NCBI GenBank assembly: GCA_035528115.1
Contig: DATKZF010000001.1
Coordinates: 92,508 to 156,507, forward strand
DNA from: Candidatus Bipolaricaulota bacterium
GTDB taxonomy: Bacteria > Patescibacteriota > Patescibacteriia > UBA11705 > DATKZF01
DNA: 64,000 nucleotides
Direction: 5' to 3'
Shown here in pieces: positions 9,891 to 52,960 of the stretch. The notes beneath the pieces were generated by a model, which ran no database searches, was not told the origin of the DNA, and saw only the letters and a list, made by a program, of their open reading frames with translations. The position numbers were made by a program, and so were the translations under genes. The stretch's first letter is position 1. Every line of letters begins with the position of its first letter.

Positions 9891-9950
9891 GTTACGAATT
9901 ACAATATTCTTAAGCATAAAGCTACAAATGGATGTAATTTGTAAGAATAT
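9891..9950 (+). repeat. MITE-like repeat, short form (R1)
   Basis: GTTACGAATTACAA, then attcttaagcataaagctacaa, then gatgtaatttgtaagaatat. Lies between two convergent genes. Confidence 0.6.
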
Positions 9951-10973
9951 TTAAATTTTATGCGCCAGCATGCCGCAGGCCGCTTGAATGCCTTGGCCGA
10001 AGCTTTTCCTGACCGTGAATTTTATTCTTTGATTTTCCAGAAGTTTTTCAAATGCATTCATCTCATTTTCCGTTGTCGAATGCCAGTTTATTTTATTTTT
10101 GTCAGCGACAATATCGGTCGCGTGAAATTTGATTATATTCAAATGATAGAGAGGATGAGAAAGAAGGCTGTTTAGTTTTTTGGCGTCTTCAAGACTGTCG
10201 TTGAATCCGGGGATTACAATATATTCGAAAAATAATTTGCGCCGAGTGGCGTTGACGTATTTTTCGCAAGTCTTCATTAACGTCTTCAGCGGATATTTAC
10301 CATTGATCGGCATAAGAAACGATCTTTTTTTGTCTCCGGCCGCGTGCAACGATATGGCCAGGTTGACTTGGGGAAAGTCTCGACCGAATTCCAAAATTTT
10401 CGCCGGGATCCCGCAAGTGGAAACGGAAATTCGTCTCCAGCCTATATCCATGAGATTGTGAATCGAATCAATGGCTTTTTTCACTTCGTCATAATTCATG
10501 AACGGCTCGCCCATGCCCATGAACACGATATTATTGACGCTTTCGTTTGTTGATTTCAAATAAGAATTGACTTCTCGCAATTGATCAATGATTTGTTCCG
10601 CAGTCATGTTTTTTTGAAAACCCATGGCGCCGCTGGCGCAGAATTTGCAGCCCAGAGCGCAGCCGGATTGGCAGGATAAGCAAACCGTATTTTTATCATC
10701 TTTATTTTTAATAATTACGGCCTCGACAATATTTCCGGAATCAATGAGCTCAAAGGCCAGTTTTTCGGCGTATTTGGACTTGGCAATGTCTTTTATTTTC
10801 ACTGAAGAAAATCCCACGTTGTCTTGGAGGGACTGTCTCAAATCCTTGGAAATAATGGAAAAATCAAGCCAAGAAGACGCGTTTTTGGTGAAATAATAAT
10901 TCAAAATCTGGCCGAATCGAAATTTCGGTTGACTTGAATCCTTTAGAAATTGTCGCAATTGGTCGATATCCAT
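9951..10973 (-). CDS. rlmN: 23S rRNA (adenine2503-C2)-methyltransferase RlmN/Cfr family (radical SAM)
   Basis: CALGCKFCASG radical-SAM cluster and the RlmN N-terminal helical domain. The start is set at MDIDQ (10973). The TTGACC-N17-TACAAT element ends about 7 nt before this ATG, so the mRNA is probably leaderless. Confidence 0.85.
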   Translation of the reverse strand: MDIDQLRQFLKDSSQPKFRFGQILNYYFTKNASSWLDFSIISKDLRQSLQDNVGFSSVKIKDIAKSKYAEKLAFELIDSGNIVEAVIIKNKDDKNTVCLSCQSGCALGCKFCASGAMGFQKNMTAEQIIDQLREVNSYLKSTNESVNNIVFMGMGEPFMNYDEVKKAIDSIHNLMDIGWRRISVSTCGIPAKILEFGRDFPQVNLAISLHAAGDKKRSFLMPINGKYPLKTLMKTCEKYVNATRRKLFFEYIVIPGFNDSLEDAKKLNSLLSHPLYHLNIIKFHATDIVADKNKINWHSTTENEMNAFEKLLENQRIKFTVRKSFGQGIQAACGMLAHKI

Positions 10974-11022
10974 AAACCAAATTGTAACATTAAATTGTTT
11001 TTCGGTCAATTGAGGCGAGATT

Positions 11023-11050
11023 TGAGTTTTGGGAGGGGAAAGGGTAAAAT
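11023..11050. repeat. 28-bp direct repeat, left copy (tgagttttgggaggggaaagggtaaaat)
   Basis: Perfect 28/28 match to 16178..16205. The flanking bases differ. Confidence 0.8.
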
Positions 11051-11230
11051 ATGGTTGTGCGAGATACATGTTTTACTTTTGGGGCTATCGTCAGAGCTTT
11101 TAAAAGAAAGTGGATTTTTTTCTTTTTTATAGAGGGGATATAAGGAATTTTCACGCTACGCTCCAAAACTTTATTTTATAATTAGAGCTAAGGCGCTATA
11201 ATACAACAGAAATAAATTCGAAATACGCTT

Positions 11231-50568: not shown

Positions 50569-52053
50569 TTATTCTTTTGTTTTCATAAGAGGAAAAAAGA
50601 CCACGTCTCTCAAATTCTCCTGCCCCGTTAAAATCGTCATCAATCTGTCAATTCCAATCCCCCAGCCGGAAATGGGAGGCATGCCGTATTCCATGGCCGT
50701 GATAAAATCCTCATCAATCTCAGACGCTTCCTCGTCTCCCGCGGCCCTGTCCTTCATTTGTTGCTCGAATCTTTGTCGCTGATCGATGGGGTCAACCAAT
50801 TCGGAATAAGCCTTGGCCAGCTCCCAAGTATTGATTACCAATTGAAATTGATCGACGACTCTGGGGTCTTTATTGTTTCTGCGAGCCAAAGGCTGGAGCG
50901 ATTCCGGGTAGTAATATAAGAACGTGGGCTGTATTAATTTTGGCCGACTCACTTTTTTATACAGGTTATCTATCAGTGTATACAGGTTCATTTTTTCCAT
51001 GCCCTCAATCTTAATCCCTTTCTTTTTTATATCTTTCAACAATTCTTTGACGTCGGTATAATCCAAAACATCAAGTCCCGTATCCTTTTTTAATAAATCA
51101 ATAAAATTCACTCTTTTAAACGGCGTGCTGAAATCGACTTTTTTCATTTTGCCGTCTCTGTCAGGCACGTCTATTTTTCGATCGAGGCCGAGTTTATCAA
51201 ATAAATAATCAAACATCTTTTCCGTAAAAGCTATATTATCCTCAAAATTCCAATAGGCCGCGTAATGCTCCAAATGCGTATGCTCGGGCAAATGCGATGG
51301 ATCAATCCCTTCGTTTCTGAATGCTTTGCCAAGCTCAAAAATCTTCTCATAACCTCCGACGATCAGCTCCTTGAGCGGCAATTCATGCGAAATCCTCAAA
51401 TATACATCCATATCAAGCGCGTTGTGATGAGTTTTATAAGGTTTTGCATGCGCTCCGGTCGCTTCATGCAGTAAAACGGGGGTTTCAACCTCTTGGAATC
51501 CTTGCTCCCAATAAAACTCGCGCAGGCTTTTAATCAAGCGACTGCGCAAATTAAAAATCTGTCTCGCTTCATCATTCATTATCAAATCCAAATAACGCTG
51601 CCTGTATCTGGTTTCAACATCTTTTAAACCATGCCACTTCTCGGGCAGAGGCCTCAAAGCTTTGCCCAAAAATTCATATTTTTTAACCAAAACCGAAATT
51701 TCTCCTTTTTGGGTGGTAAAAATCTCTCCATTAACTCCCAAAAAGTCCCCAATGTCAAAATTCTTAACAAAAACCTTGTACGCTTCCTTGCCGACCTCAT
51801 CTTGTTTCAAAACAATCTGCATTTTACCGGAAGCGTCCAATAAGTGGCAAAAAGTCAATTTGCCCATGTCGCGCAAAAGCATGATTCTGCCCGCGACGCT
51901 GACTTTTTTGCCTTCAAACAATTTTTTCGCCTGAGCCAAGGTCTGCTTTTTTTCAAATTTCTCAGGATATGGCTCAATACCGGCCGCTCTGATTTTTTCA
52001 AGATTTTGCAATCTCGCTTCTTGCTCTTTGGTTATTTTTTGGTCCATATTCAA
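50569..52053 (-). CDS. lysS: Lysyl-tRNA synthetase (class II)
   Basis: OB-fold N-domain, FRNEG motif, class II motifs. 494 aa. Confidence 0.9.
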   Translation of the reverse strand: MNMDQKITKEQEARLQNLEKIRAAGIEPYPEKFEKKQTLAQAKKLFEGKKVSVAGRIMLLRDMGKLTFCHLLDASGKMQIVLKQDEVGKEAYKVFVKNFDIGDFLGVNGEIFTTQKGEISVLVKKYEFLGKALRPLPEKWHGLKDVETRYRQRYLDLIMNDEARQIFNLRSRLIKSLREFYWEQGFQEVETPVLLHEATGAHAKPYKTHHNALDMDVYLRISHELPLKELIVGGYEKIFELGKAFRNEGIDPSHLPEHTHLEHYAAYWNFEDNIAFTEKMFDYLFDKLGLDRKIDVPDRDGKMKKVDFSTPFKRVNFIDLLKKDTGLDVLDYTDVKELLKDIKKKGIKIEGMEKMNLYTLIDNLYKKVSRPKLIQPTFLYYYPESLQPLARRNNKDPRVVDQFQLVINTWELAKAYSELVDPIDQRQRFEQQMKDRAAGDEEASEIDEDFITAMEYGMPPISGWGIGIDRLMTILTGQENLRDVVFFPLMKTKE

Positions 52054-52267
52054 ATATTACTATTACGAATAATTAAATGTATTAGGATTTAGCTTGGTTT
52101 TCAGCATTTGATTTTAAGTTTTACTGCAAATAGTTGCGAATATCTAATATCTAAATCCAAAAGGACTATTAATGTCTATATTTTACCGCATTCGATTACC
52201 TTTGGCAAATTCAAAAACCGGACAAAAGCCCGGCTTGAAGCGCCAACGAGCCAAGACGTCTGGCTCT

Positions 52268-52723
52268 CTATCTTATCTCTATAATCTCATACGAGATCAC
52301 CCCGGCAGGGACTTCTACTTCCACCACTTGCCCTTTTCTCTTGCCTAAAAACGCGCTGCCCAAAGGAGATTCATTGGAAATAAAACCGGCCGAAGGATTG
52401 GCCTCATTATATCCCACTATTTTGTAAGTTTGTTCGCCGAATTTGGATTTAACCACCACTTCGGATCCTACCCCTACTTCTTCCTTGCTGCCGCTGGCTT
52501 CGGACACCACCGCGCTTTTCAACAAACCTTCAAGCTCCTTTATTCTAGCTTCAACCATGCCTTGTTCGTCTTTGGCCTCATGATATTCCGCGTTTTCAGA
52601 CAAATCGCCCAGTTCCTTGGCTTTTTCTATTTTTTCGCTAATTTCTCTTCTTTTTTTATTCTTTAAATAATCAAGCTCTTTTTTAATCTTTTCCAAACCA
52701 TCTGGAGTTAATACTGGAACCAT
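52268..52723 (-). CDS. greA: Transcription elongation factor GreA
   Basis: N-terminal coiled coil (LT..G...L..EL..L) plus C-terminal FKBP-like domain. 151 aa. Confidence 0.9.
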   Translation of the reverse strand: MVPVLTPDGLEKIKKELDYLKNKKRREISEKIEKAKELGDLSENAEYHEAKDEQGMVEARIKELEGLLKSAVVSEASGSKEEVGVGSEVVVKSKFGEQTYKIVGYNEANPSAGFISNESPLGSAFLGKRKGQVVEVEVPAGVISYEIIEIR

Positions 52724-52801
52724 AAAATATTTTTTTAATTATATTGATAAATACTACAATTTTTTAATTATCGCGTCAAGAAGCTATCCACATGAATGAT
52801 T

Positions 52802-52960
52802 GTTATGAATTACAATCATCTAGTAGGCCGATGAATATATGTTACAAATTACATTCATCCATGGCTTTAAGCCTGAGAATCTTGTAATACGTAACAAATT
52901 ACCTAAAAACTAAATGGACGCTTGTAATTCGTAACACTTTACCCATTACCCTTTACTAAT
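52802..52960 (+). repeat. MITE-like repeat, composite (R9)
   Basis: A 94-bp unit (52802-52895) with GTTATGAATTACAA/TTGTAATACGTAAC, about 85% identical to the R3 unit, plus an extra TIR copy CTTGTAATTCGTAAC at 52921-52935. Confidence 0.7.

Follow-up and report, generated by a model that had tools for sequence, protein, structure and literature searches.

A 134-bp nested-palindromic repeat in the intergenic spacers of a Patescibacteria genome fragment

Results

The 64-kb stretch of contig DATKZF010000001.1 analyzed here (the window, numbered from its first letter) carries a family of short repeats in the spacers between its genes. The flanking genes are all housekeeping genes, among them def, fmt, priA, clpB, queA, greA, PBP2, mreBC, and several aminoacyl-tRNA synthetase genes, as assigned with Pfam. 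A profile search built from the aligned loci identified four full copies of a 134-nt element (R2, R7, R3, and R9), one copy consisting of the inner part only (R1), and two fragments (R4 and R6); a further, fifth copy lies about 1.4 kb past the window end, and the Logan contig L014 starts inside it. Homologous copies are dispersed at about one per 8 kb, as had been estimated in an earlier note made from the sequence alone, and the 134-bp repeat takes up roughly 1% of the window sequence.

The repeats are marked by the 14-mer GTTACGAATTACAA, which consists of two RTTACRA/TTAC heptads. Exact matches occur seven times in the window, at 9891, 17461, 23744, 23824 (minus strand), 30483, 39325, and 52922 (minus strand), compared to 0 expected from shuffled sequences, and there are 19 matches at up to two mismatches compared to 0.69 expected. 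According to a hand-curated gene map, intergenic sequence accounts for 6,779 nt (10.6%) of the window. The sole match within an open reading frame (ORF), at 8508, has two mismatches and is at chance level; all others are intergenic, and apart from this one the earlier statement that the 14-mer occurs only between genes holds. The shorter word GTTAC is about 11-fold denser in spacers (2.07/kb) than in coding sequence (0.19/kb). The loci listed in the earlier note are correct overall, except that the start at 39326 should read 39325 and that 38128 is no motif site: it lacks a match at up to three mismatches and is a degenerate tract only.

All four full copies are exactly 134 nt long and can be aligned with one another without a single gap. 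R2 (17461-17594) and R7 (41198-41331) are on the plus strand, and R3 (23744-23877) and R9 (52802-52935) are on the minus strand, R9 being co-oriented with minus-strand genes. Each copy is composed of four modules of about 20 bp (GTTACGAATTACAAKMWTCT) in the order ++-- around a conserved loop. In R2, for example, the modules start at 17461 and 17501 on the plus strand and occupy 17542-17555 and 17581-17594 on the minus strand. The left pair of modules starts 40 nt apart, the right pair ends 39 nt apart, and the inner pair bounds a hairpin of 55 nt. The logo built from 20 sites gives a module of about 20 bp, t-GTTAC-R-AATTACA-W-K-M-W-TCT, in which the inner modules are conserved as well as the outer, terminal ones. 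R1 and the four full copies all have inverted termini of 13-20 nt. Outside the modules, the loop TTCTYAGGCWTAAAGC (AGGCWTAAAGC) and a block preceding module 2 (TTTNAGGTNATNT) are conserved, and the spacer preceding module 4 splits the copies into an R2/R7 and an R3/R9 subfamily. Pairwise identity is 85.1% for R3/R9, 80.6% for R2/R7, and 70-75% across subfamilies. By inspection, the 134-nt unit contains stop codons in all frames and lacks coding capacity.

Several structural claims of the earlier note can be judged from this alignment. Full copies do carry the motif at both ends as inverted repeats, and R2 and R7 are collinear 134-bp units in the opposite orientation to R3 and R9. The reported identity of about 85% between R3 and R9 is correct, whereas their reported length of 94 bp is not, and the proposed division into two forms gives way to a single architecture, on which the reading of the loci, the alignment, and the profile agree. 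The term terminal inverted repeat is accurate as far as it goes, and it understates an arrangement of four phased modules, two of which are internal.

The remaining loci are partial or degenerate. R1 (9891-9947, plus strand; model positions 16-97, E 2.5e-12) comprises the inner hairpin only, that is, modules 2 and 3 and the loop. R4 (30455-30508, plus strand; model positions 13-66, E 2.6e-6) is a truncated copy, and R6 (39325-39346, plus strand) is a 22-nt single-module fragment found in the profile search. Of four loci previously described as short and one-ended, R4 and R6 are thus truncated or fragmentary as stated, R1 is two-ended, and 38128 is not a match. The latter locus (GTTACGAATGGTTACAAAT) belongs to a degenerate tract of TTAC words in the clpB leader (38078-38145; GGTTACAAAT ... 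CGTTACGAATGGTTACAAAT). A degenerate solo module, GTTACGAATTATTG, is located at 23975-23988 on the minus strand and precedes the start codon (ATG) of the HD/OB gene by 9 nt; with three mismatches, it could be a chance match.

R3 and R9 have common flanks (repeat families D2 and D19): four TTAC heptads form a tail at one end, and an ACATGAATSAT block adjoins the other end. The D2 tail of R3 (23878-23905) reads ATTACTC ATTACTA TTTACTG ..., and that of R9 (52936-52965) reads TTTACCC ATTACCC TTTACTA ATTACAA and enters the PBP2 stop codon; positions 52952-52965 within the R9 tail match the 14-mer at two mismatches. The extended repeats, 23733-23905 and 52791-52963, are 83% identical over 173 nt. On the other side of R3, at 23705-23743, is a flank module (CATGGATCATGTAACACATAACATGAATCAT / CATRACAYRTAACATGAATCAT) with a repeat core at 23705-23735 (family D19, 84% over 31 nt). 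A second copy of this module occurs alone beside the stop codon of a radical-SAM gene (38246-38276), and a partial copy accompanies R9 (52788-52800).

Most elements lie immediately behind genes, with gaps between stop codon and element of 3 nt for R1, 5 nt for R7, 6 nt for R2, 18 nt for R3, and 24 nt for R9. R1 fills a spacer of 63 nt at which two genes converge, with stop codons at 9887 and 9951. R2 follows a small zinc-ribbon-like ORF (17227-17454) and is itself followed, 19 nt on, by an AT-rich terminator hairpin with T7 (17614-17642), which was read from the sequence. Similarly, R7 follows the WecG/NUDIX gene (39984-41192) and is followed, 15 nt on, by a GC-rich bidirectional terminator hairpin (41347-41373), which was called by program. 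R9 lies between the PBP2 stop codon (52960-52962) and the greA promoter, and heptads occupy its 24-nt gap. R3 is positioned between the AMMECR1 stop codon (23725) and the HD/OB gene (23998), upstream of the latter. It had been thought to touch the ATG at 23998, but it ends at 23877, and the separate solo site is nearer to the ATG. R4 is in the def-fmt spacer, its left end overlapping the fmt start codon (30456, minus strand), and R6 is in the divergent promoter region of a radical-SAM gene (start 39311, minus strand) and a LigT-like gene (39448). Relative to the upstream gene, R2, R7, and R9 run in the same direction and R3 runs in the opposite direction.

In the window, the AMMECR1 protein has lost its conserved C-terminal SE and ends in TFGHGSCNT, compared to FSE in both relatives; the flank module of the repeat encodes this new tail and provides its stop codon. 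These repeats can thus overwrite gene ends, as in AMMECR1, and sit on start codons, as in fmt.

As the earlier note had suggested checking, each full copy is predicted to fold into a long imperfect hairpin, and this holds for either strand (z -3.2 to -7.5). A single strand forms an imperfect hairpin of about 60 bp that contains the inner 55-nt hairpin; for R2, the predicted energy is -46.6 kcal/mol (z -7.2). The canonical strand folds better than its complement in two of the four copies (R2, -46.6 vs. -34.5 kcal/mol; R3, -41.4 vs. -34.0 kcal/mol). The long hairpins follow from the conservation of inverted modules and not from compensatory evolution. The covariation term of RNAalifold is about zero across copies, and covariation equals that of shuffled controls (93.4% vs. 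93.0% paired, score 0.110 vs. 0.109, one compensatory pair). Position 6 of the module varies freely without compensation in the partner arm, and G-U and A-C mismatches are equally frequent in the arms, which argues that neither strand is preferred. A search against Rfam 15 returned only tRNA-Trp at gathering score and nothing over the elements even at E <=1, and no consistent promoter or terminator was found around the four full copies.

Outside the window, scanning 185,579 representative genomes with a two-module pattern yielded no member of the family. The matches of this pattern were period-7 (RTTACRA)n arrays in metagenome-assembled genomes (MAGs) of Bacteroidota and Ignavibacteria and one Nitrosopumilus array; the gap in the pattern, N{25,29}, lets such arrays through at N29. 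The presence of the 14-mer in period-7 arrays indicates that it is a dimer of a heptad. The arrays, (AGTTACA/AATTACA/AGTTACG)n in MAGs of Bacteroidales, Bacteroidota, and Ignavibacteriaceae, hold the identical 14-mer (L003 5000-5307; L005 990-1170; L006 7250-7320; L007 3860-3990; L008 7755-8000), and some adjoin (TTGTCAY)n and (AATACYT)n heptamer arrays, reminiscent of cyanobacterial STRR repeats. On an uncultured Nitrosopumilus chromosome (L004 1866-2083), the two-module pattern occurs three times at 82-bp spacing, indicating a tandem repeat. An inner-core pattern gave three chance matches only in JGI metagenomes, and neither a pattern scan of IMG/VR viral contigs nor BLAST against plasmids and phages gave a match. 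A literature search for MITE/REP repeats (see Discussion) in the candidate phyla radiation (CPR) returned nothing relevant and no description of REPINs in Patescibacteria. No described family matches the sequence, in agreement with the earlier note, which knew of no element with such termini.

The nearest homologs of ClpB, QueA, and LysRS all belong to Patescibacteria (Falkowbacteria, Parcubacteria, Magasanikbacteria, and Komeilibacteria), and the NCBI protein label "Candidatus Bipolaricaulota bacterium" is probably wrong. The relative GCA_049319825.1, with 81% identity in ClpB and 66% in QueA, shows synteny in both regions compared (L012 and L015). Relatives were searched for empty sites, as the earlier note had advised: the spacers of L012 orthologous to the R7, R6, R4, and clpB-leader sites contain no module, and in L020 (LysRS 78% identical) the 121-nt PBP2-greA spacer lacks R9 and keeps the promoter block CATGTGGAT-N6-CTTGAC that adjoins R9 in the window. 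These are distant relatives, as their ClpB (81%) and LysRS (78%) identities indicate. Together with the remodeling of AMMECR1, the empty spacers in syntenic relatives argue that the family was gained or expanded in the lineage of the window.

The relatives have spacer repeats of their own, made from other short words and often in the same kinds of spacer, such as the clpB leader and def-fmt (L013 3470-3570 and 3700-3770; L018 2300-2385; L020 11602-11725; L012 17576-17665; L015 9311-9395). They comprise ACGGATC/ACAGATC palindromes and 51-nt tandem repeats, GCGATAT/GCGAGAT palindromes, and TTACRAGAT tracts, and they suggest a clade-wide, fast-evolving word-repeat phenomenon. In GCA_049319825.1, a TTACRAGAT tandem tract follows a small zinc-ribbon ORF, and the window has no counterpart at the equivalent place.

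Contigs assembled from short reads (Logan) break inside the copies: L001 and L002 end in R3 (23809), L019 starts in R9 (about 52863), and the break of L014 inside the fifth copy is of the same kind. Judging from the coordinates, the 29,055-nt contig behind L001 would fit exactly between the centers of R3 and R9. Such breaks are expected of multicopy repeats that share 31-mers or longer words.

Some other interpretations of the element were considered and set aside. An origin of the outer arms as a duplicate of the inner hairpin by nested self-insertion was not supported, since alignments of the spacers were mostly nonsignificant against shuffles (p 0.03-0.57, one 0.006). The termini, 5'-GTTAC...GTAAC-3', have the opposite polarity to the RYYYAAC/GTTRRRY cores of integron attC sites, and the copies are spread through housekeeping DNA at distances of 6-12 kb, in both orientations and with no integrase found in the window, unlike attC hairpins (R''-L''...L'-R'), which form same-orientation arrays next to intI. 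Resemblances to dif/Xer, parS, and integration host factor sites were dropped on the grounds of sequence polarity or context.

The window contains further features of interest. A 1.33-kb ORF-free stretch (45899-47229) has no Rfam match even at E <=1 and includes two GC-rich islands on the minus strand. One (about 45945-46228) lies behind a perfect TTGACA-N17-TATAAT promoter and ends in a hairpin (fold z -3.2), and the other (about 46335-46570) ends in a strong terminator with T6 (fold z -4.3); both are likely to be unannotated non-coding RNA genes. Positions 46815-46843 match L012 1307-1335 at 29 of 29 positions, compared to an identity of only 51-81% between the proteins. A perfect direct repeat of 28-29 bp, ATGAGTTTTGGGAGGGGAAAGGGTAAAAT (11022-11050 and 16177-16205), lies on either side of a block of 5.1 kb with genes for a type III restriction-modification system (Mod, 11231-12895; Res, 12898-15168) and a DUF5677 protein, and its left copy is at the 5' end of an RlmN-like radical-SAM ORF. 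In L015, the place behind the radical-SAM gene is taken by msrA and prs, and a type III methylase gene is present elsewhere in the locus (20099-21026). The block looks like an integrated defense island with an att-type duplication. A large alpha-2-macroglobulin-like ORF (45-4181) contains a Hint/intein-type domain (PT-HINT, Vint, and Intein_splicing matches, residues about 614-747) between the A2M bait region and the A2M domain. Upstream of clpB, a CIRCE-like operator, TTAGCACTC-N9-GACTGCTAA (38186-38212), lies between a TTGACA/TACAAT promoter and the gene, an arrangement conserved in L012, L013, and L018. Finally, the cumulative GC skew peaks at about 28700-29530, where gene orientation changes from plus to minus across a 795-nt ORF-poor spacer; this could mark a replication terminus or a point of rearrangement.

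Discussion

We propose, with moderate confidence, that the 134-bp unit is a lineage-specific, non-autonomous, nested-palindromic intergenic repeat of the kind represented by miniature inverted-repeat transposable elements (MITEs), by hairpin-forming doublets of repetitive extragenic palindromic (REP) sequences (REPINs), and by enterobacterial repetitive intergenic consensus (ERIC) sequences, and that it is old rather than recent. The copies share sequence outside the sites, namely the AGGCWTAAAGC loop and the block before module 2, which argues that they are homologous by descent rather than merely equipped with the same operator sites. Dispersed homologous copies of this kind, truncated relics, and the gain relative to syntenic relatives, with a remodeled gene end, together show that whole units were copied and that the sites did not evolve independently as operators. 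The propagating unit would be the entire 134-bp element, and the copies may have been made by a trans-acting enzyme that is encoded elsewhere in the genome and recognizes the 20-bp module. An enzyme that recognizes hairpins or single-stranded DNA, similar to the REP-associated tyrosine transposases (RAYTs) or to IS200/IS605 transposases, would fit somewhat better than a cut-and-paste DDE transposase, given the hairpin geometry and the lack of a target-site duplication. The elements are strictly intergenic, usually in the slot of about 20 nt between a stop codon and a terminator or the next promoter, and they have decayed in part into one-ended fragments. Read-through transcripts would hold the hairpin in their 3' untranslated regions (3'UTRs), with effects on mRNA that are at most incidental. 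The spread appears to have been ancient and slow. The reading of the earlier note is supported in part, by the intergenic location, the inverted ends, the lack of an ORF, the truncated relics, and the absence from orthologous spacers of relatives; it had also called the element recently active on the basis of high identity between copies, and at 70-85% identity neither statement can be upheld, since a divergence of 15-30% argues against recent activity.

A number of observations weigh against this proposal. No flanking direct repeat of at least 3 nt is visible on reading the flanks of R1, R2, R3, R7, and R9, so that the target-site duplications of 2-10 bp sought at the suggestion of the earlier note are not apparent at any copy, although a cryptic TA duplication inside GT-TA-C...G-TA-AC would escape such a reading. 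The transposase partner sought in the same vein is likewise missing from the window: among its approximately 50 ORFs, Pfam identifies no transposase, RAYT, integrase, or recombinase, and there is no PF01797-type match (RAYT Y1 HUH). An autonomous insertion sequence (IS) with the same termini was found neither in the window nor in plasmid or phage DNA, IMG/VR, or the representative genomes by the searches described above. Copies that differ by 15-30% substitutions have no indels, and this, with inner modules conserved like the outer ones, looks like a constraint on geometry of the kind that a functional module would show. Logan contigs from SRR8554643 and SRR8554512 that carry the same genes are 100% identical to the window and offer no presence/absence variation for comparison. 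Finally, the AMMECR1-HD spacer of GCA_049319825.1, which is orthologous to the R3 site, holds a related 86-nt hairpin (GGTTACCAGATTACAAGAT ... ATCTCGTAATCTGGCAACC), whose arms, TGAGGTTACCAGATTACAAGAT / ATCTCGTAATCTGGCAACCTCA, match the window module at 16 of 21 positions with one indel. The occupant of the R3 site may thus have been inherited rather than newly inserted, and the hairpin points to long persistence rather than to a recent burst. The 10-mer TTACAAGATT is common to the repeats of both genomes. The family is part of an older superfamily of palindromes built from TTAC words in the clade.

The invariant length and the conserved inner modules make a host function the main rival, even if on balance we consider it rather unlikely. 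The element would then be a cis-acting module under host selection, either an array of four phased 20-bp sites for a nucleoid-associated or regulatory DNA-binding protein or a hairpin acting as a 3'UTR stabilizer or attenuator; retention by selection in the latter role has been proposed for some REP/BIME (bacterial interspersed mosaic element) and ERIC copies. Conservation of the four modules site by site, with a free and uncompensated position 6, is as expected of sites in double-stranded DNA, and the lack of indels despite 15-30% substitutions, the related hairpin in the same AMMECR1-HD spacer of a relative with proteins 56-81% identical, and the different word-based palindromes that relatives have in comparable spacers, namely the clpB leader and def-fmt, are all compatible with such a function. 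On the other hand, elements occur in both orientations relative to transcription, with R3 opposite to R2, R7, and R9, four orthologous spacers of relatives lack them, and R4 and R6 are truncated relics. R2 and R7 each have a terminator of their own behind them, which argues that the element is not needed for termination. The start of elements 3-24 nt past stop codons could be read as a sign of function, and we dropped this argument: before insertion, the gaps between stop codon and terminator at R2 and R7 were only about 20-25 nt, so that tiny spacers open to insertion explain the nearness. The earlier note had named a REP-like protein-binding or RNA-structure module as its alternative, and a REP-like module is still a live rival. 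A structured non-coding RNA or riboregulator made from one strand of the element would account for the stable predicted folds and the better folding of the canonical strand in two of four copies. Covariation at the level of shuffled controls, equal frequencies of G-U and A-C mismatches, the absence of Rfam matches and of consistent promoters or terminators around the full copies, and copies in both orientations relative to flanking genes already weakly disfavor an RNA, which we regard as improbable.

Two further explanations take the short word rather than the unit as their starting point, and we give both very little weight. A DNA uptake signal particular to the species, like those of Neisseria and Pasteurellaceae, would be consistent with a strongly over-represented word, with inverted pairs behind stop codons, and with the use of different words by related lineages. 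Uptake sequences often form inverted pairs downstream of genes, and Patescibacteria depend on competence machinery. Known uptake sequences (DUS/USS) are, however, frequent in coding DNA, whereas the present word is absent from genes save for the chance-level match at 8508; it is almost confined to a composite 134-nt unit with conserved loop and spacing, and about 20 sites per 64 kb in eight loci amount to a low effective density. Local slippage or gene conversion of heptads, arising independently in each spacer, is suggested by the two TTAC heptads of the 14-mer, by the heptad tails of R3 and R9, and by the identical 14-mer in long heptamer arrays of unrelated Bacteroidota and Ignavibacteria MAGs. 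Such a process cannot yield four gap-free 134-nt units with shared non-heptad sequence, and spacings of 40 and 39 bp are not multiples of 7. Slippage is thus contradicted for the full copies, and it could account for the heptad tails and the tract at 38078-38145.

A broader and distinctly speculative possibility, which we think probably does not hold, is a clade-wide system in which each Patescibacteria lineage maintains its own word of 7-10 nt in palindromic or tandem spacer elements. The words are TTACGAA/TTACAAG in the window, TTACRAGAT and GCGATAT in GCA_049319825.1, and ACGGATC/ACAGATC in three other relatives, and elements made of them recur at like positions, namely the clpB leader, the def-fmt spacer, and the AMMECR1-HD spacer. 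If true, this would imply a vertically inherited, co-evolving protein that recognizes the word; candidates would be a domesticated transposase akin to RAYTs, a nucleoid protein, and a competence receptor. The CPR would thereby gain its first described system of a REPIN/RAYT-like or uptake-signal-like type.

Genomes of CPR/Patescibacteria are about 1 Mb in size, streamlined, and usually described as repeat-poor. The family described here provides a handle on whether palindromic repeats, selfish or domesticated, persist in ultra-small genomes and on which enzyme moves them. It also bears on the fragmentation of MAGs, given that three independent short-read contigs end exactly inside copies, and annotators should be aware that such repeats may overwrite gene ends and sit on start codons.

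Among known repeat systems, REPINs and REP/BIME sequences are REP doublets that form hairpins and are mobilized by RAYT transposases (Bertels & Rainey, PMC3337134, PMC3116915). The window element resembles REPINs in its extragenic location, in a species-specific unit of about 20 nt arranged as inverted doublets with a spacer that also pairs (here both the outer and the inner module pairs), and in a hairpin of about 90-130 nt. Singlets as decaying remnants, the lack of a target-site duplication, and long vertical persistence are further points in common (PMC3337134), as are more complex nested or tandem arrangements and related but diverged units in related lineages. By contrast, the window module has neither the GC-rich imperfect palindromic core nor the GTAG-type 5' tetranucleotide of REP sequences; it is AT-rich and contains two direct TTAC heptads, and the unit is a doublet of doublets at a fixed 40/39-bp spacing, with no RAYT among the window ORFs. 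The best palindrome within GTTACGAATTACAAKMWTCT is a 4-bp GAAT/ATTC stem that most of the 20 sites do not preserve, and in the absence of a palindromic core the unit is not a REP in the strict sense.

ERIC sequences, also called intergenic repeat units (IRU), are 127-bp imperfect palindromes of enterobacteria with no known transposase and no clear target-site duplication. The window element is similar in size (134 compared to about 127 bp), forms a long, imperfect palindrome around a conserved inverted repeat at its center, is intergenic in transcribed regions in either orientation, shows moderate divergence between copies, and also has no known transposase or clear target-site duplication. 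It comes from a different phylum and shows no apparent similarity to the ERIC consensus. Moreover, ERIC copies vary by internal indels, whereas the four window copies are length-invariant, and the compensatory RNA changes reported for ERIC were not seen in the window copies.

Correia/NEMIS of Neisseria, RUP of Streptococcus, and Nezha of cyanobacteria resemble the window element as ORF-less units of 100-200 bp with terminal inverted repeats and with many intergenic copies near gene ends that are able to fold in mRNAs. Like these MITEs, the window element has terminal inverted repeats and is short (under about 500 bp), non-coding, and dispersed in multiple copies. Classical MITEs, however, have defined target-site duplications, which are TA in Correia and RUP, as well as a cognate IS whose termini are the same, and neither was found here; for want of a target-site duplication, the element is not a MITE in the strict sense. 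In addition, its internal modules repeat the terminal ones, which sets it apart from classical MITEs. Rickettsia palindromic elements (RPEs) are comparable as palindromic repeats of about 100-150 bp that spread in a reduced genome, and the remodeled 3' end of AMMECR1 adds to the likeness; RPEs, however, insert in frame inside ORFs, whereas the window elements are otherwise strictly intergenic. Heptamer tandem repeats of the cyanobacterial STRR type share the RTTACRA heptads of the 14-mer, which is itself tandemly iterated in L003 and L007. They form long head-to-tail arrays of period 7, whereas the 134-nt unit of the window is dispersed and contains inverted modules spaced 40 bp apart.

In conclusion, the element is a new example of the known MITE/REP-type repeats and not a new kind of system, and functionally it is closest to REPINs and to ERIC. 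Its interest derives mainly from its CPR host and from its rigid four-site geometry.

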